DNA of 6,048 bases from a virus (Duplodnaviria; Heunggongvirae; Uroviricota; Caudoviricetes): IMG/VR virus record IMGVR_UViG_2667527717_000014, positions 1 through 6,048 of that record. One strand, given 5' to 3'. The notes below the pieces were generated by a model. The model was not told the origin of the DNA and did not search any database. It saw only the letters and a list, made by a program, of their open reading frames with translations. Numbering within the stretch: the first letter of the stretch is position 1; each line of letters begins with the position of its first letter. Positions 1 to 6,048 of the stretch are shown here, piece by piece. The position numbers and the translations under genes were made by a program.

Positions 1-245
1 ACCACCGCCTGCCGCTTCTTCGATCCGCGCCTNNCNNCGNNNANCANNAAGCGAGCATTAGGATGTTCACTGAGCCACATATACTTATTCCTGCAAAAGA
101 AAGTATCGCGTGTGTCATACTTCATGGCAAATCCAAAACCGACTTTTATGATGGATAACGTATGTATACTAAATGCAACATATGAAATGCAGCCAATAAG
201 AAATAATGGGACGAAAACTGACATTAAATAGTTATTATCATCATC
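1..245 (-). CDS. Hypothetical hydrophobic protein, 3'-partial (runs off window start; crosses ambiguous bases 33-50)
   Basis: ATG at 245..243 (minus), same frame as the upstream 291..881 ORF, with no in-frame stop down to position 1 by manual codon check. Translation MIDNNYLMSVFVPLFLIGCISYVAFSIHTLSIIKVGFGFAMKYDTRDTFFCRNKYMWLSEHPNARF... contains a transmembrane-like segment. No convincing SD; may be the tail of a disrupted larger gene. Confidence 0.35.
33..50. other. Run of ambiguous base calls (N interspersed with called bases)
   Basis: Sequence reads nncnncgnnnancannaa; it coincides with a switch from GC-rich (1-32) to AT-rich composition. Interspersed called bases point to low-quality sequence rather than a sized scaffold gap. 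Confidence 0.9.
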
Positions 246-290
246 AGTTGGCGTTACTTTCCTTTTCTTTACTTTTGAGGGCATCAATAT

Positions 291-881
291 TAAACAAATA
301 ATGCAAACAAGGTAAATGATGCAATACAATATAAAAATAAAAAGTAATGCTACAACTGCCGTCATGAGTTTATTGAATGTAGCATCAAATGGAATGTCAA
401 ACAAATTGGAAATTAGCGAGCGTGCAATATAATATGAAATTAATGATACAATTACCCACACATATTTAATTCCCAGGTTAATTTTTATGGCTATGTTTTT
501 TTCTTCATTATCGAACGATTTTATGTGAGATGATATTGTGTATGTAATACACAATATCGTCACAAAAGCCAATGTATATGGAATGATGGTATTTATATAA
601 CCAATAACGTTAAAGGAAACAATTGTTAATAAAAACAGAAATACCGACAACAGTGCGGCATCTTGCGTTTTTTTATAATTTTTTCGAAGGCGAACGGCCT
701 GTTGACTGGATGACTTTTTATTCCAATTATTTTGTACGATTAATCCGCTGAGAATAATCATACCAAACCAAATAAGAATGGGGTATACAGGATCACTCTG
801 AGGTATGATGACGAGCACTGCCATAAAAAACAATAAACTGTGAACAATCCCGAGGTGTAAGGAAGAGTATATACTTTTCAT
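291..881 (-). CDS. Polytopic inner-membrane protein of unknown function (196 aa), AT-rich cargo gene
   Basis: Manual translation: ATG at 881..879, stop TAA at 293..291, upstream in-frame stop at 911..909, and no stops across 196 codons in AT-rich DNA where stops are frequent. Protein MKSIYSSLHLGIVHSLLFFMAVLVIIPQSDPVYPILIWFGMIILSGLIVQNNWNKK...LMTAVVALLFIFILYCIIYLVCIFV has about 5-6 hydrophobic helix-length segments with basic loops. Weak SD (AAGG, 7 nt upstream). Not in the supplied ORF track. Confidence 0.6.
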
Positions 882-992
882 CGATGACCTTTTTAATAAT
901 GGGTTATTCTATTGGAATTAGAAAAACCACCAGCAGGCCATTACTGTCAAGCCCGGACGCTGTCTGTTTTATCCGTAGCACACGTACATAAA

Positions 993-1018
993 CGCGCCAT
1001 CCGAACCACGATGGCGCG
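993..1018 (-). terminator. Candidate rho-independent terminator closing the minus-strand prophage operon
   Basis: Perfect 9-bp GC-rich inverted repeat cgcgccatc (993-1001) / gatggcgcg (1010-1018) with an 8-nt loop, starting 10 nt after the stop of the 1029..1199 ORF. On the minus-strand RNA it is followed by UUUAUGU. Confidence 0.5.
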
Positions 1019-1028
1019 ACAGTACATC

Positions 1029-1199
1029 TTACAGTTGGTCAGACTTTCCTTCAGGGCGTATCAGCTCGTCCCGTGATTCAGGCGTTATTACAATCTGATG
1101 ACTCAGCAATGGCACGACCACGAACTCACCAGAACTGAGTACGTATACAAGATATCTGCCAGGAACTTTCAACATTCTCAACAGTTCATCTGTATTCAT
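1029..1199 (-). CDS. Small hypothetical protein (56 aa)
   Basis: Internal ATG at 1199..1197 of track ORF 1029..1262, preceded by GGAG 8 nt upstream. The TTG-initiated N-terminal extension in the track is less likely. Translation MNTDELLRMLKVPGRYLVYVLSSGEFVVVPLLSHQIVITPESRDELIRPEGKSDQL. Confidence 0.45.
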   Translation of the reverse strand: MNTDELLRMLKVPGRYLVYVLSSGEFVVVPLLSHQIVITPESRDELIRPEGKSDQL

Positions 1200-1325
1200 A
1201 TTTTTGCTCCGTTGGTTAACAGATTCCCTTTCGGGAGCATTCCCTTTCATCCCTGTGCACAATCTTTTTAAAACAGTGCCGGTACGCGCATACAGGTTTG
1301 TTAGAATGTCTGTTAATAGAGCAAA

Positions 1326-1532
1326 TCAGATATCACTCTCCCCAAGGCTCCTGCATTCAAAGTTCTCCAGTTTCACATGTTCACCGGCAGTACGGCCCGC
1401 CTCTTTAGGCTTATAAAAACGCATTTCGCACTGTTTCTGGGTCAGTCTGGTTTCGGAGTAAAATGACCAGGCCACAGGCGGATTGCCTGCTTTATGGATA
1501 GTTGCTGTAATTTTGTATTTTTTCCCTTTCAT
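1326..1532 (-). CDS. Small basic hypothetical protein (68 aa)
   Basis: Track ORF with ATG at 1532..1530, co-oriented with the flanking prophage genes. Lys-rich N-terminus (MKGKKYKI...); no strong SD. Confidence 0.35.
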   Translation of the reverse strand: MKGKKYKITATIHKAGNPPVAWSFYSETRLTQKQCEMRFYKPKEAGRTAGEHVKLENFECRSLGESDI

Positions 1533-1607
1533 ACTTACTGCCGAAAAATGTGTTGATTATTTACACAGATTCGTATCACAAGCAGCCAGGAGTATCCAAG
1601 CAGGATA

Positions 1608-1634
1608 TGAAGGTAACCCAGTATGTTACCTTCA
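1608..1634 (-). other. Perfect 10-bp inverted repeat (hairpin) just downstream of the 1648..2388 gene
   Basis: tgaaggtaac (1608-1617) / gttaccttca (1625-1634) with a 7-nt loop, 14 nt past the stop at 1648-1650. No clean U-tract follows on the minus-strand RNA. Confidence 0.4.
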
Positions 1635-1647
1635 CTGTCTGATATCA

Positions 1648-2388
1648 TCATTCGGTACTAAGCCCCTGCCACAACGCCCTGTTACCAGGTTTATGCACTT
1701 GCCGGGAAATCTCACGGCACTTTTTCAGACGTTTCAGTTTTGCTTCCGTCCTGCGAATTTCAGCGCTGATCGCCCGTGGTGTAGGGATGACAACGTCGTC
1801 GTGCCGCCGTTCTGTGAATGACGGTATCGACTGAATAAGGTCTGCAACGTTATCTGTTGAGGCTTCAGCAGCAGTTACTGATGCCGCTAACTTTATTGCT
1901 TCAGGTTGCGGCGCAGGATTATCGTCGCGCCCCATGGCTGAACAGGCTTTCTGTTTCTCCGGTAAACCATCATCAGGCAGACTGTAACGAAACTTGCCAT
2001 CATGATTAATCCGCAAAAGACGCCCCTTTCCCGTAGCCATCGCCAGCGTGGAGGCAACCTTCCTGGCTGTTGTGCTGAAGCGCCTGGACAGTTCATCCGC
2101 CGTCTGTGGGCCGTGTTTTCGGATAGCGTCTGTCAGCTGCTTCTCATCGATTTTCATAACCGTTTCCACTGGTGTTACAGGGTTCACTATTTTTTCTTTG
2201 GCAACGTCAGTCAGTTCCTTTTCCGGTCCGGACAGAGACCAGTAGCCGTTCAGGAATATCACCCTGCCTGAGTCTTCCTGCTCACGCAGCATTTCCAGAA
2301 CATCTTTTGTCTCGATGAGCAGGCGTGCTGCGACCTCGCGAGCAGTGGCTTTTCCCATCGCTTTCAGTGCATCAGTCACTGTTTCCAT
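1648..2388 (-). CDS. Prophage hypothetical protein (246 aa) with internally duplicated, winged-helix-like N-terminal repeats
   Basis: Start moved to the internal ATG at 2388..2386, preceded by AGGAGA 8 nt upstream and lying 23 nt after the DnaC-like stop (2412-2414). The track's ATG at 2463 would overlap the DnaC-like gene by 52 nt. Two similar ~50-aa segments: TVTDALKAMGKATAREVAARL...GRVIFLNGYWSLS and QLTDAIRKHGPQTADELSRRF...GRLLRINHDGKFRYSL. Confidence 0.7.
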   Translation of the reverse strand: METVTDALKAMGKATAREVAARLLIETKDVLEMLREQEDSGRVIFLNGYWSLSGPEKELTDVAKEKIVNPVTPVETVMKIDEKQLTDAIRKHGPQTADELSRRFSTTARKVASTLAMATGKGRLLRINHDGKFRYSLPDDGLPEKQKACSAMGRDDNPAPQPEAIKLAASVTAAEASTDNVADLIQSIPSFTERRHDDVVIPTPRAISAEIRRTEAKLKRLKKCREISRQVHKPGNRALWQGLSTE

Positions 2389-2411
2389 TGACAATTTCTC
2401 CTGTGATTCAG

Positions 2412-3152
2412 TCAGGGCCGGTTGACGTTTTTTCGCCAGCTTTCCCAGCCAAAATTTACCCATCGGCCACCGTTCATGGACATTCTGTCCATCACCCGCT
2501 GACCTGCCAGCTTAGTCAGTGCATCATGGTTCAGGTTGGTCAGCATTCCGACGCTGCGCAGGGATGCGGTCCGGCGATCAACAATCTGGTGCAGGATGAC
2601 CTGCTCGTTGCGTGTCTCACGCTGCACACCAACCTCATCAAGGATCAGCAGGTCCACTCCGCACAGCTCCTTCAAAAATTTTTCACCCGAATTTCCATCA
2701 TCGTACCCGGCATGAAGCGCACTCATCACGTCGGCGACGGTGATAACAATCACACTGCGTCCGGCGTTCATCAGGCGGTTACCTATGGCGGCGGCCAGAT
2801 GATTTTTGCCGGTACCAGGCTTACCGCTGAACACAAAATTTGTACAACCGGTATCCAGTTCAGCAGCTATGGATTTGGCCTGGCTGAGCGCATGCTTCTG
2901 GCCGTCATTCTGCACCCGGTAATTCTTGAACGAGCATCTGCGATGCAGTGGCTGAATACCGGCCCGACCGAAGATTTTTTCGGCCCTGGTCTGGCGGTTA
3001 AGTCGGTCAATTTCCTCGCAGCGTCTGCGCCCTTCGGCTAGCTGCCATTCCCGCCACTCCCCCGGCGTCCGGAACGGTGCGGAACTGTTGGCCGACCGTG
3101 GCGCCAGTTTCCTGATGCGGGCCAGAATCCCGGTATCTGCGATGTTTCTCAT
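2412..3152 (-). CDS. dnaC: DnaC-like replicative helicase loader (AAA+ ATPase, DnaC/IstB family)
   Basis: Walker A FSGKPGTGKNHLAAAIG and Walker B DLLILDEVG. Block-wise similarity to E. coli DnaC as recalled from memory (CSFxNYRV, IITVADxMSA, QIVDRR, GMLTNxN, GxRVMDRM). ATG at 3152 with GGGGTGA SD 6 nt upstream; 6-nt gap from the upstream initiator gene. Confidence 0.92.
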   Translation of the reverse strand: MRNIADTGILARIRKLAPRSANSSAPFRTPGEWREWQLAEGRRRCEEIDRLNRQTRAEKIFGRAGIQPLHRRCSFKNYRVQNDGQKHALSQAKSIAAELDTGCTNFVFSGKPGTGKNHLAAAIGNRLMNAGRSVIVITVADVMSALHAGYDDGNSGEKFLKELCGVDLLILDEVGVQRETRNEQVILHQIVDRRTASLRSVGMLTNLNHDALTKLAGQRVMDRMSMNGGRWVNFGWESWRKNVNRP

Positions 3153-3158
3153 GGCTTG

Positions 3159-4076
3159 TCACCCCCTGAAACCCGGTGGAATGGTTGTGTCCGGTGGCGA
3201 AATATCCTGAATCCTGGTCGGGCTGTCGCGGCCACGATTGCCTCCCCGGTCCTGGTCTTTTGCCAGCCAGCCGGTGATAAATTTCCTGATGCCTCGGGCG
3301 GTTTTTCGTCGTCGTCGTTCGCTGAGCAGCCATCCGCGCTGATTACGCAGTGCCTGCCGGACGTCGACCGCCGGATACAGCGTCTCAAACTCGACAACCA
3401 TCGATTCGGTCACGGAAAATTCAGAACCGTCGTTGAGCGGAAGCCGAATAAACTCAGGGTCATCAGGCGGTGTTGATGGCACACCAGCGCTCAGAGGCCG
3501 ACGCTCAGGTCCGACATGGGCTGGTCCGGTACCATCGGGCAAACTCGCACCCTGTGACCCGAAATTTTCATCCAGTTGCGTGGGGCTGATTTTTTCAGCT
3601 CCGCGCAAGAGGTTTTGATCTTTTAGATCTGTTTCTTTATCTTTATCTGGATCTTTATTAGTTGCCTTTGTGTTGGGCTCCTGTTCAAACACAGAACCAA
3701 CACCTGTTGAACATGTGTTATTTTCGCTGGCAGATTGTGCTTCCTTCCTGTTCCTTCTTGACTGAACAGATGCTTTTCCTGCTGCAGACTTTTTCGCTAA
3801 GGTTTCCCTGACCGAATGAAGATCATCTTCAATACGCTTGTGAACCCACTCCGTGCCGTTATCAGTAAAAAATTCTCTCAACGACTCTTCTACGGCTCCC
3901 CAACGCTCACTGCTAACCCGGGCAATCTTTGCCAGCCTGTTTTTCGGTATAGCCCTTCCGGTCTGCCAGTAATTGAACATCAGCAGTAAATAGGCCCCAT
4001 GCTCCTCGGTTGAAAGATGCATTGTGTCAGCCAAGTAATCAGCGATATAAAGCTGCATGTATGGAAGTGCCGCCAT
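3159..4076 (-). CDS. Phage replication initiation/organizer protein, DUF1376 (YdaU-like) N-terminal domain
   Basis: N-terminus MAALPYMQLYIADYLADTMHLSTEEHGAYLLLMFNYW matches the conserved DUF1376 motif as recalled from memory. Low-complexity acidic/basic linker (KDPDKDKETDLKD). Sits immediately upstream of the DnaC-like gene. GAGG SD 4 nt upstream of ATG 4076. Confidence 0.85.
   Translation of the reverse strand: MAALPYMQLYIADYLADTMHLSTEEHGAYLLLMFNYWQTGRAIPKNRLAKIARVSSERWGAVEESLREFFTDNGTEWVHKRIEDDLHSVRETLAKKSAAGKASVQSRRNRKEAQSASENNTCSTGVGSVFEQEPNTKATNKDPDKDKETDLKDQNLLRGAEKISPTQLDENFGSQGASLPDGTGPAHVGPERRPLSAGVPSTPPDDPEFIRLPLNDGSEFSVTESMVVEFETLYPAVDVRQALRNQRGWLLSERRRRKTARGIRKFITGWLAKDQDRGGNRGRDSPTRIQDISPPDTTIPPGFRG
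3610..3720. other. Candidate phage replication origin embedded in the initiator gene linker region
   Basis: Three GATC sites within 37 bp (3617-3620, 3626-3629, 3650-3653). AT-rich tract with CTTTAT repeats (3635-3640, 3641-3646, 3653-3658). Two palindromic TGTT-N-AACA motifs (3682-3691, 3706-3714). This corresponds to the inter-domain linker of the encoded protein, as for lambda ori within O. Confidence 0.3.
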
Positions 4077-4126
4077 AACGCCTCGCTACGCTCTTTTCCG
4101 TTCGGTCTGAATACAAAAATTAATAC

Positions 4127-4143
4127 TCACTGGTCATGTCTCT
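4127..4143. repeat. 17-bp exact direct repeat, copy 1 (tcactggtcatgtctct)
   Basis: Identical 17-mer at 4127-4143 and 4716-4732, in the same orientation, bracketing a ~590-bp segment. Confidence 0.9.
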
Positions 4144-4154
4144 CTGTTTGGTGC

Positions 4155-4214
4155 CGAACCTCCTGCTGGTGCTAGCCTGCTGATTCCCCAACCAACAGAA
4201 CCACAGGAGGTTCG
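4155..4214 (+). promoter_or_regulatory. 5' leader stem-loop sequestering the Shine-Dalgarno of the 4217..4429 gene
   Basis: cgaacctcctg (4155-4165) is the exact reverse complement of caggaggttcg (4204-4214), which contains AGGAGG (4205-4210) and ends 2 nt before ATG 4217. 11-bp perfect stem, 38-nt loop. Confidence 0.45.
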
Positions 4215-4216
4215 AC

Positions 4217-4429
4217 ATGTCAGATACAAAACTTAAAAATGGATTAACGCCTGAACAAATGGCACACGATATCGCTATGGTGCTCATCGGGAACCCATCC
4301 CATGAATGGCTTTCGGATAATGCGACCAAAACTCGTAGCACTGAATTAGCAATGAGCGCTGTAGCAGAAGAAGTCATGAACATGGAAAAACATCTTGCTG
4401 CAGCTCTTCATCAGTACACGGAGAACTAA
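4217..4429 (+). CDS. Small acidic hypothetical protein (70 aa), opposite-strand gene inserted in the early operon
   Basis: ATG 4217 with AGGAGG 6 nt upstream, stop TAA 4427-4429, followed by an intrinsic terminator. Translation MSDTKLKNGLTPEQMAHDIAMVLIGNPSHEWLSDNATKTRSTELAMSAVAEEVMNMEKHLAAALHQYTEN. Preferred over the antisense track ORF 4120..4383, which has no SD. Confidence 0.6.
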   Translation: MSDTKLKNGLTPEQMAHDIAMVLIGNPSHEWLSDNATKTRSTELAMSAVAEEVMNMEKHLAAALHQYTEN

Positions 4430-4438
4430 TCCGCATCA

Positions 4439-4465
4439 AAGGTCGCTGAGTTCGCGACCTTTTTT
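4439..4465 (+). terminator. Rho-independent terminator between convergent genes
   Basis: Stem ggtcgc (4441-4446) / gcgacc (4454-4459), extendable by flanking A/T pairs, 7-nt loop, followed by TTTTTT (4460-4465). The stop codon of the minus-strand 4465..4686 gene abuts the T-tract. Confidence 0.75.
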
Positions 4466-4686
4466 CAGTCCACTCCAGTAGGCATCCCCAACCATTTTTT
4501 TATATCGCTATAACTCAGCGTTATGGGCTGATTTTTGCCGGACTCTTCAACCGGTATGGTATGTTCCTCTTCAAATTTCTTTTCGAAGGTACGCATGTGC
4601 TCACGCCAGGCATTTCGATCTTCGATCGCTTCTTCCCTCCGGTTCAGTCTGGCGTAATACCGTTCCTGCTCAGTCAACGTTTTCAT
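4465..4686 (-). CDS. Small hypothetical protein (73 aa) downstream of the YdaT-like gene
   Basis: Internal ATG at 4686..4684 with AGGAG 6 nt upstream, preferred over the track's GTG at 4719. Translation MKTLTEQERYYARLNRREEAIEDRNAWREHMRTFEKKFEEEHTIPVEESGKNQPITLSYSDIKKWLGMPTGVD; charged and helical-looking. Confidence 0.6.
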   Translation of the reverse strand: MKTLTEQERYYARLNRREEAIEDRNAWREHMRTFEKKFEEEHTIPVEESGKNQPITLSYSDIKKWLGMPTGVD

Positions 4687-4702
4687 TACTTCTCCTGCAT
4701 GG

Positions 4703-5206
4703 TTACAACAGATGGTCACTGGTCATGTCTCTGATACTGCTGGCGGTAACTGCTTCGTAGCGTCTGTATTGCTTGTATGGCTTCATCACACTCCCGTTCA
4801 AAATCCGTAACAGGCGCACCAAGAAGTACCGCATTTGCCACTGCGGTTTTTTTAAAAACTGTGTAAGCAGATACTCGATGCTATGCCCTGCCGTGACCTG
4901 CTTATGCAGCTCCGGCGCGTGTATCCGGATTGCTTCAAGAACTGCGGGGATTAGCGCTGAAAACTTTTCGCGGTGCTCTGTCGTTTCGAGTTTTCGCCAT
5001 CGCTGAAAAATGTTTATACGATTCCGGCGCCATGCTTCGTAATCCACCGTTCCGTCATCACGTTCTATACGGTGGACAGCAATATCTGGTCTCACTTGCT
5101 GTTCCAGAAAGGCGCGGGTGATCAACTGTGTTGCACTTTCCTGACTCATTGCGGGTGTAGCCAGCCAGGATGACAGTGCTTTGTTGGCATCCTCAGGGGT
5201 GATCAT
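4703..5206 (-). CDS. ydaT: YdaT-like protein (functional analogue of CII in YdaS/YdaT-type prophages)
   Basis: Core segment NIFQRWRKLETTEHREKFSALIPAVLEAI resembles the conserved YdaT core as recalled from memory for E. coli Rac. ATG 5206 with AGGTGA SD 6 nt upstream; 14-nt overlap with the upstream Cro-like gene. Confidence 0.8.
   Translation of the reverse strand: MITPEDANKALSSWLATPAMSQESATQLITRAFLEQQVRPDIAVHRIERDDGTVDYEAWRRNRINIFQRWRKLETTEHREKFSALIPAVLEAIRIHAPELHKQVTAGHSIEYLLTQFLKKPQWQMRYFLVRLLRILNGSVMKPYKQYRRYEAVTASSIRDMTSDHLL
4716..4732. repeat. 17-bp exact direct repeat, copy 2 (tcactggtcatgtctct)
   Basis: Identical to 4127-4143. On the minus strand it encodes the RDMTSD C-terminus of the YdaT-like protein; the copy at 4127-4143 encodes RDMTSE in an otherwise non-coding or antisense context. 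Confidence 0.9.
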
Positions 5207-5468
5207 CGTTGTTCACCTCTCTCGCATCCTTTAGTGGTAGATTTTGATGGCTAGGCAAAGCATCCGTTGGATTAGGGTAAAGAACTGAGTCGAGCTGATG
5301 CGGTGTAACTGCATACCCTACGGCCTCACAAAAAGGAATAATTCGTCGCGGTGGGAATTTTCCTGTTGTAACCCATAGACTTACGTTTTGCTGACTAGTT
5401 TTAAGACGTCGGGCGATCTCGGTCTGATTAGTGATGCCGAATAGTCGGCTCCTGGTTTTAAATTCCAT
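5193..5468 (-). CDS. ydaS: Cro/YdaS-like HTH DNA-binding protein (first gene of the early operon)
   Basis: ATG at 5468..5466 with GGAGG 4 nt upstream; the track's GTG 5486 extension is rejected. HTH-like segment QTEIARRLKTSQQNVSLWV. Divergent from the repressor gene across the operator region, with the YdaT-like gene immediately downstream. Confidence 0.75.
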   Translation of the reverse strand: MEFKTRSRLFGITNQTEIARRLKTSQQNVSLWVTTGKFPPRRIIPFCEAVGYAVTPHQLDSVLYPNPTDALPSHQNLPLKDAREVNNDDHP

Positions 5469-5570
5469 ATATCCTCCAAATGTCACACTTGTATAAATAC
5501 AGCATGAACTTGTATTTTACAAATTTAAATTTGTGTGACGCTAACAAAATTTACTTGTAAAATATGAGGT
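5469..5570. promoter_or_regulatory. Divergent promoter/operator region between the repressor and Cro-like genes
   Basis: Perfect 16-bp palindrome ACAAATTTAAATTTGT (5519-5534). TTGTA-TTT-TACAA (5510-5522) and TTGTA-TAAA-TACAg (5489-5502) sites. ACTTGTA recurs three times (5487-5493, 5508-5514, 5553-5559). Candidate minus-strand promoter: -35 TTGTAA (5522-5517), -10 TATTTA (5499-5494). Candidate plus-strand -10 TAAAAT (5558-5563), only ~8 nt before ATG 5571. Confidence 0.6.
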
Positions 5571-6041
5571 ATGAAAAAAAACAACGAATCAGCTCAATAC
5601 GAGACTTCAGCCAGAAGGATCAAACAGGTCCTGTATGAATTAGGCTGGAACCAAAGTCGCCTGGCTAAAGAAATTGGGGTTTCAGCTCAGGCGGTACAAC
5701 AATGGGCAAAAGGTACTTCTCGACCGAATGGCCCTAATCTAACTCGACTTTCTGAAGTCACAAGCAAACCTGAAGCATGGTTTTTCAGTGATGTCAGCGG
5801 GTTATCTGAGAGTCATGCAGTACATTTACCAGAAAGTAATGGTTCAGACTTTCTCCCGCTTAGCGATGAAGAGATCAGACTGCTAACTGTCTTCAGGAAA
5901 TTTCCTTCTGTAGAGAGTAAAAACATGCTGTTAGCGTTTGAGATGAGACTTCNGCGCCGCTTCAGTTCACTCTTCAGGGCGGGGGTGAAATGGCTGGTAA
6001 TAAATGACGGACACAGACGGAAACCACGTCGTAGCCAGTGA
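5571..6041 (+). CDS. CI/RacR-like prophage repressor (XRE-family HTH, no obvious S24 peptidase domain)
   Basis: HTH segment QSRLAKEIGVSAQAVQQWAKGTSRP; 156 aa; divergent from the Cro-like gene. One ambiguous base at 5953 gives X in the C-terminal region, so the C-terminus may be affected by sequence quality. Confidence 0.8.
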   Translation: MKKNNESAQYETSARRIKQVLYELGWNQSRLAKEIGVSAQAVQQWAKGTSRPNGPNLTRLSEVTSKPEAWFFSDVSGLSESHAVHLPESNGSDFLPLSDEEIRLLTVFRKFPSVESKNMLLAFEMRLXRRFSSLFRAGVKWLVINDGHRRKPRRSQ

Positions 6042-6048
6042 AATAAAC

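Follow-up and report, generated by a model that had tools for sequence, protein, structure and literature searches.

Why should two small genes in the early region of a prophage be bracketed by two exact copies of the same 17 nucleotides (nt)? The question is raised by positions 1 to 6,048 of the IMG/VR virus record IMGVR_UViG_2667527717_000014 (Caudoviricetes), a stretch of 6,048 nt that is hereafter called the window and is the early region of a Rac-like prophage. In this window a 17-mer is repeated on either side of a 572-bp cargo (4144-4715), which lies between the gene of a CII-like regulator of the YdaT family and that of a DUF1376/YdaU-type replication initiator. The mosaicism of phage genomes has been explained either by recombination targeted to short conserved boundaries or by random illegitimate joins that are afterwards sorted by selection (PMC3233612). 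The present locus offers a concrete and testable case of the boundary-targeted model in Rac-like prophages of Escherichia coli and Salmonella, with one 17-nt unit at many module joints, filled and empty sites side by side, and a phage RecET system at hand. We consider it probable that recombination at a conserved boundary motif brought in the module, and the repeat is best read as a new example of this known idea rather than as the scar of a random insertion.

The repeat and what it encloses

An earlier, sequence-only reading of this DNA had reported an exact 17-bp direct repeat, estimated its chance probability at about 0.001 and placed one copy some 50 bp upstream of the initiator, and on all three points it was right. 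The plus-strand sequence TCACTGGTCATGTCTCT is found by exact scan at 4127-4143 (copy 1) and 4716-4732 (copy 2) in the same orientation, with no third match in the window even when three mismatches are allowed. By chance, 0.00106 exact direct 17-mer pairs would be expected in 6048 bp, two matches were found in none of 200 shuffled controls, and the pair was also recovered as direct-repeat family D2 in a repeat search. Because the flanking bases of copy 1 and copy 2 differ on both sides, the repeat is exactly 17 bp long.

On the minus strand, copy 2 closes the CII-like/YdaT gene, of which it makes up the final 17 nt when the conserved -1 frame is read (QRHDQ, followed by TGA at 4716-4718), and a GTG at 4717-4719 within it opens an 84-amino acid (aa) form of the next open reading frame (ORF), p73. 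Copy 1 lies 50 nt upstream of the initiator ATG (4076), and its own GTG (4128-4130) opens a 14-codon ORF (4086-4130), leaving 12 nt between its end and the start of the initiator. The earlier description of the bracketed segment, as a plus-strand gene (4217-4429, here p70), its terminator and a 73-aa minus-strand gene, is accurate. The peptide RDMTSD, which had been taken for the C-terminus of YdaT, is instead the tail of the unshifted frame 0, the conserved end of the protein being encoded in the -1 frame.

Empty sites among relatives

Is the cargo an addition to an older arrangement? The comparison set comprised 76 loci encoding a YdaT homologue at 63-80% identity. The 572-bp cargo is absent from all of them and none encodes p73 or p70. 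A single exact copy of the 17-mer is present at the 3' end of ydaT in 62 of the 76, two direct copies in none. The single copy is followed by a DUF1376 initiator within 90 nt in 39 loci, by a different initiator in 22 and by a third module in one. Aligned with such sites, the window is an empty site to which 589 bp have been added, and on either side homology is taken up again at the 17-mer; its stretch from copy 1 to the initiator shares homology with the spacer between ydaT and the initiator in empty-site relatives. An insertion between the CII analogue and the replication genes, as the sequence-only reading had proposed with single-copy relatives in mind, is therefore supported. Since all contexts that carry the exact initiator allele of the window are filled, the cargo is fixed in a sub-lineage and absent from its sister lineage. 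Neither the junction nor the cargo gave a Megablast match among complete E. coli genomes or GenBank phages, and a search for distant matches recovered the 5' end of the initiator only.

The module is mobile. Its core, a convergent gene pair at 4148-4689, is 90.6% identical over 544 nt to a segment of the Salmonella locus L192, where it stands behind another ydaT allele and lacks flanking copies of the motif. The p70-side edge of the module (...ggttcggcacca) is common to the window, L192 and a further locus, L090.

Could the repeat have been made by the insertion itself? On this view the final 17 bp of ydaT would have been duplicated by chance in a single event, be it an illegitimate insertion or an unequal crossover, and the other copies of the 17-mer would be unrelated to the origin of the duplication. 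Empty sites exist, the cargo starts right after the ydaT stop, and in L192 the module occurs without repeats, all as this explanation would have it. In addition, the 3' end of ydaT and the start of the initiator leader overlap (GTGA); a viable insertion must therefore duplicate the overlapping signals, so that selection alone could fix the duplication. However, the ydaT sequence is not carried on in the 5 nt upstream of copy 1 (aacag), and the unit has the same two edges as independent copies near recE, at the excisionase gene and in unrelated phages, which a random breakpoint is unlikely to match. We regard a one-off event as unlikely. The earlier suggestion that the 17-mer is simply a duplicate of the 3' end of ydaT is not supported, the 17-mer being a common motif of these phages, a finding that the sequence-only reading had itself named as speaking against its proposal.

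An insertion flanked by a direct repeat also calls to mind the target-site duplication of a small transposable element. Against this, no transposase or other family was detected in the cargo with Pfam, PHROGs, NCBIfam and PADLOC (apart from one weak PADLOC match), there are no terminal inverted repeats, a 17-bp duplication would be unusually long, and the module of L192 has no duplication at all. A transposon is almost certainly not the answer.

A recurrent motif at gene junctions

The 17-mer is not confined to the two sides of the cargo. In mRNA sense the copies of the window read AGAGACATGACCAGTGA, and the consensus of the motif is AGAGACATGACCARTGA. The prophage to which the window belongs has four copies at no more than one mismatch, against an expectation of 0.00012, and all four are in operon sense: at the end of ydaT, upstream of the initiator, about 60 nt upstream of recE and at the start codon of the excisionase gene, the last two on the pL side. 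Likewise, an exact inverted copy is present on the pL side in 57 of the 76 relatives, and a scan of IMG/VR for the consensus retrieved 96 stretches.

Neighbours of the motif vary and its limits do not. In all the loci compared, 12 classes of left flank and 16 of right flank meet at the exact motif in 18 combinations; five different right flanks follow the ydaT end alone, and the initiator leader is preceded by three different left flanks. The unit has sharp edges, identical in every context. When loci L182 and L129 are aligned, the upstream genes are unrelated up to position 1 of the motif, with homology from position 1 or 2 and continuous thereafter, and L182 and L178 are unrelated on both flanks and share AGC, the motif and CC only. 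In prophages of the L084 type, a further module, that of p151, is inserted 4 nt after motif copy 2. Judged from these alignments, the 17-mer is a discrete, recurrent gene-junction motif of Rac-like (YdaS/YdaT-type) prophages of E. coli, Salmonella and their relatives.

Sharp edges, consistent orientation and the succession motif-cassette-motif, as opposed to a single motif at empty sites, would also be expected of the core site of a dedicated, integron-like system of site-specific cassette recombination. Yet the 20-kb contexts contain no recombinase other than the prophage integrase beside the excisionase, and the 17-mer as read from its sequence has no dyad symmetry. Moreover, the module moves without the motif in L192, and distant alleles with AGAGATGTGACCAGTAG at the ydaT end (L001 and L073) show the motif there evolving like any other coding sequence. 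Such a system is very improbable here.

A stop and a start in one unit

What, then, is the motif for? It contains a purine run, TGA at positions 8-10 and again at 15-17, and ATG at 7-9; an ATG or GTG at positions 14-16 overlaps the second stop (RTGA). The -1 frame of ydaT ends at the second TGA, and in L182 the ORF of a replication initiator that lies upstream of a methyltransferase ORF ends at the first. The excisionase ORF begins at the ATG of the motif, its match to Pfam DUF1233 running from residue 5 and that to phrog_539 from residue 2, and in L182 a DNA methyltransferase ORF and a 277-aa ORF start within the motif as well. Elsewhere the RTG opens a short ORF of 11-19 codons, which ends between 5 nt after and 25 nt before the ATG of the next gene. 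Position and usage suggest that the motif is kept because it serves as a portable stop/restart joint for translation.

Other functions were considered and set aside. The short ORFs are not conserved leader peptides, as their peptides and lengths vary with small indels. A role as a nut/put-type antitermination site was rejected as unsupported, since the motif has neither a hairpin nor a boxA-like sequence and its recE-side copy lies downstream of a terminator-like hairpin; no promoter was found inside the motif either. Finally, binding by YdaT or CII was rejected because the published YdaT box, an inverted repeat TTGATT-N6-AATCAA (PMC9986795, PMC11879457), does not match the motif, neither half-site (TTGATT or AATCAA) being present in the 17-mer.

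How the module may have been acquired

In an ordinary relative, one copy of the motif ends the CII-like gene and opens the short leader ORF ahead of the initiator. In the lineage of the window, the 572-bp accessory module would have been placed directly 3' of that junction: copy 2 would still end the CII-like gene and now open the gene of p83, the 83-aa form of p73, and copy 1 would restore the original junction ahead of the initiator leader. With a motif copy on either side, neither the stop of the CII-like gene nor the leader of the initiator would be lost. We infer that the motif itself was the crossover site, either in a single crossover of a motif-bearing circle or in a crossover between non-allelic copies, and the RecE/RecT proteins of the prophage could plausibly have assisted. 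RecT of Rac is efficient on short or diverged homology, and the minimal segments quoted for efficient pairing are 23-27 bp for Red-beta and 31-34 bp for RecA (PMC3945230).

Several observations weigh against acquisition at the motif. At 17 bp, it is shorter than these minimal segments, so a crossover driven by homology would be inefficient. The motif was not needed for movement of the module in L192, which lacks it, and no motif-module-motif donor was found outside this site. In four relatives (L060-L063), a 10-nt deletion (ACATGACCAG, at about 5475 in their coordinates) lies inside the ydaT-end motif; YdaT ends in ...QQYQSE* there, the initiator leader is otherwise the same and the initiator is kept, which makes the ydaT-end copy dispensable in these loci. 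As for the translational role, the peptides of the short ORFs that begin at the motif lack conservation, and the AGAGA purine run is a weak Shine-Dalgarno sequence. Furthermore, most of the loci are close kin, and exact conservation among them carries little weight; the strong evidence is that of about a dozen diverged contexts.

A possible RNA operator

Every copy of the motif is in mRNA sense and overlaps or precedes a translation start, and an exact identity of 17 nt exceeds what a ribosome-binding site requires. The motif could accordingly be an RNA operator for a trans-acting regulator, that is, an OOP-like antisense RNA or an RNA-binding protein, its copies being kept for the co-regulation of modules. 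Duplication in the window would then preserve control on both sides of the cargo, and an antisense RNA, if transcribed across the ydaT-end copy, would bear the complement of the motif and pair with the copies at xis, in the recE leader and in the initiator leader. In both lineages an antisense terminator-like hairpin followed by T7 lies inside ydaT (ACCGCATTTGCCACTGCGGT and T7, 4828-4853 on the plus strand, with the hairpin at 4828-4847 and the equivalent in the empty-site relative L009 at 5360-5379); the T7 run is the complement of the A7 slip run of ydaT. In L009 it is faced by a promoter-like sequence in the 5' end of the initiator gene (TAGACA-18-GATAAT, 10 of 12 matches, 5580-5609), and the pL and pR copies of the motif share 21 identical nt in the relatives.

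Other observations speak against an operator. The antisense promoter candidate of the window, TTGAAA-18-AGTAAT at 4010-4039 on the plus strand, was picked by eye within the initiator gene, outside the cargo; it is a weaker match than its counterpart at that place in L009 and fails the rule of the promoter scanner. If active, it would drive p70 in the window and an OOP-like antisense RNA at empty sites. The fold of the antisense stretch is ordinary (z = -0.13), the pL and pR copies of the window lineage differ at one base, which would leave a C-A mismatch, and no Rfam family was found at any motif copy. In addition, L060-L063 persist without an intact motif at the ydaT end. On balance an RNA operator is quite unlikely. 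A more far-reaching version, in which the 17-mer would be the operator of a prophage-wide post-transcriptional regulon, with an antisense RNA running from the 5' end of the initiator gene to the hairpin and T7 run in ydaT, pairing in trans with the sense copies and co-repressing excision, recombination and replication, and in which the p70 module would have inserted into that unit and taken it over, is improbable. Pairing of the small RNA DicF with the motif was rejected by eye, as only five contiguous pairs can form.

The OOP antisense RNA of lambda maps to the cII-O interval. The putative unit considered here is similarly located, just downstream of a CII-type regulator and upstream of an initiator, with an antisense terminator in the regulator gene and, in L009, a promoter-like site facing it. 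It shows no sequence or Rfam similarity to OOP, and in the window the antisense unit would encode p70.

Likeness to known mobile modules

Recombination at the boundary motif, the reading we prefer, has precedents. In the modular theory of lambdoid phages as summarised in PMC3233612, homologous recombination is targeted to short conserved sequences between genes. The 17-mer resembles the boundary sequences of that summary in that unrelated flanks share a short boundary sequence at which mosaic breakpoints coincide, and in its occurrence in early operons of lambdoid prophages with a Rad52-like recombinase (RecT). It differs from them, as they are summarised there, in that copies of one 17-mer, invariably in mRNA sense, are found at several boundaries of the same genome and in each of its two divergent early operons, and in that two stops and one start give it an evident part in coding. 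A second parallel is provided by the PeSL cassettes of T4-type phages, elements of about 100 bp composed of an early (sigma-70) promoter and a terminator stem-loop, for which recombination between copies with excision and re-insertion of a mini-circle was proposed (Arbiol et al. 2010, PMC2839356). In both cases a repeated intergenic element flanks variable genes (ORFans in the case of PeSL) and is present as a single copy at the empty site. In contrast to PeSL, the motif has a length of only 17 nt, which makes it a marginal recombination substrate, carries neither promoter nor hairpin, and acts, if at all, on translation.

Morons of lambdoid phages are extra transcription units between genes that are adjacent in relatives. 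The sequence-only reading had called the insertion moron-type, and this holds for its position between otherwise adjacent genes and for p70, an extra antisense gene with its own terminator; p151 is added at the same spot in L084-type prophages. It does not hold for base composition, which is not distinct: the GC fraction is 0.46-0.47 in the cargo against 0.47-0.50 in the flanks, without any compositional anomaly. The scan found no promoter-like site inside the cargo upstream of p70, the one candidate lying outside it in the initiator gene. Unlike a moron, moreover, the cargo includes a sense gene, p83/p73, which occupies the cII slot in other phages.

The genes of the cargo

The minus-strand gene p73 (4465-4686) is a frameshift variant of the gene of an 83-aa protein (P0009), having an A7 run at 4495-4501 where L084-L086 have A8; either variant is commonly met in public assemblies. 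At its C-terminus the 83-aa form is homologous to 88- and 93-aa proteins found in the cII slot of L090 and L092. This C-terminus is encoded through the terminator hairpin of p70 and ends 6 nt from the p70 stop. To judge from their recurrence, p83 and p70 are a conserved convergent pair, and in L090 and L092 the two genes adjoin in the slot right after the cro-like gene.

The plus-strand gene p70 (4217-4429) encodes a small helical protein and is antisense to the early operon; homologues with 49% identity are antisense at the same position in other lambdoid prophages. Its terminator hairpin (4438-4465, plus strand) has a 9-bp stem and a U6 tail and folds at -13.1 kcal/mol (z = -2.8). The hairpin also folds on the minus strand, at -16.9 kcal/mol, with a poor tail (UUUGAUG). 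Upstream of p70, a leader hairpin (CGAACCTCCTG / CAGGAGGTTCG, 4152-4217, plus strand) is predicted to bury the Shine-Dalgarno sequence. The leader of about 70 nt is near-identical in L090 and L192, although the p70 proteins are only 49% identical; it lies at 4148-4216 in the window, at 5935-6005 in L090, and at 6465-6537 and 7327-7397 in L192. A second copy of the leader in L192 (83% over 72 nt) stands beside another small antisense ORF.

In L084-type prophages, a cargo of 1231 bp is found between the same two exact copies of the 17-mer. The second antisense accessory gene that it contains, p151 (L084 10487-11154, also in L088 and L089), belongs to phrog_1244 and encodes a coiled coil with a Cys-rich C-terminus. 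It has its own terminator (a hairpin and a T-run), and its insertion replaces 10 nt. The interval after the CII-like gene is thus a hot spot that collects antisense accessory genes. An ORF related to p151 is present in L009 near its repressor.

Searches of Pfam, PHROGs, NCBIfam and PADLOC assigned no function to p73/p83, p70 or p151, phrog_1244 being a family of unknown function; p70 has a weak PADLOC match to PDC-M18A (17.6 bits). Neither p73 nor p70 has close relatives in IMG/VR, and a large protein database contains three clusters for p73 and two for p70. Salmonella proteins of 153 aa in a p73 cluster were rejected, as they are unrelated in sequence. AlphaFold models were uninformative, giving a two-helix hairpin with a pTM of 0.36 for p70 and a pLDDT of 66 for p83.

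The reading frame of YdaT

The CII-like gene (YdaT family, phrog_163; 4703-5206, minus strand) is read in frame 0 up to an A7 slippery run, TTA_AAA_AAA (4847-4853), the site of a needed -1 shift, and its C-terminal 43 codons lie in the -1 frame (4716-4847). More distant homologues, encoded in a single frame (L001, L002, L068, L069 and L073), end in ...FERECDEAI...YRQQ(Y/H)QRCDQ*. The window and about 60 relatives reach this conserved C-terminus (FERECDEAIQAIQTLRSSYRQQYQRHDQ) only by a -1 shift at the run, and the window then ends in ...YRQQYQRHDQ, its TGA being the last three bases of the 17-mer. The PHROGs match of the frame-0 ORF does not extend beyond residue 129. Past the run, base substitutions between the window and L009 are distributed 7/1/12 over positions 1/2/3 of the -1-frame codons, as against 1/12/7 for frame 0; this pattern speaks for coding constraint on the -1 frame. 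The shift could be a programmed ribosomal frameshift or result from transcriptional slippage. A conserved -1 shift in the CII-like regulator of a large group of prophages matters for the annotation and study of YdaT-type regulators.

The surrounding early region

Besides the genes discussed above, the window encodes a cI-like helix-turn-helix protein (5571-6041, plus strand) and, on the minus strand, a YdaS/Cro-like protein (5193-5468), the DUF1376/YdaU-type initiator (3159-4076), which directly follows ydaT in empty-site relatives, a DnaC-like protein (2412-3152) and a DUF1627 protein (1648-2463). By exact look-ups, 49-5952 of the window occurs with 100% identity in E. coli and Salmonella enterica prophages, where the genes for the integrase, the DUF1233 excisionase, RecT, RecE and YdaE lie to the left of cI, and a Q-like gene and lysis genes to the right. 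The two ends of the window (1-48 and 5953-6048) have Ns in them and fail to align with loci whose identity is otherwise 100%. In its 3' part the cI-like ORF looks chimeric or like a low-quality contig end; the repressor of the matching loci has 144 aa.

Upstream of recE, a block of about 150 nt is conserved (L078 6740-6930, minus strand, with equivalents in L004, L144, L178 and L182). It consists of a terminator-like hairpin with compensatory changes, an invariant CCCGGCTTTACATCCCGGCGATG, a second hairpin that covaries (GGTGGG/CCCACC versus GGTCGG/CCGACC) and then the motif. Neither Rfam nor GenBank phages gave a match to this block, which has the look of a regulatory leader of the recE gene.

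A second exact short repeat, the 16-nt TGAACAACGATGATCA, is found at 597-612 and 9472-9487 of L078, the latter corresponding to 5198-5213 of the window. It links the ydaS-stop/ydaT-start junction to a site about 70 nt from the excisionase-side copy of the motif and may be due to chance (expectation about 0.09). Finally, the pL operon contains matches to the RNA families STnc100 and DicF between YdaE and the repressor (L078 7601-7858, L009 2155-2407 and L182 9530-9719), most of them below the gathering score and one STnc100 match at the threshold.

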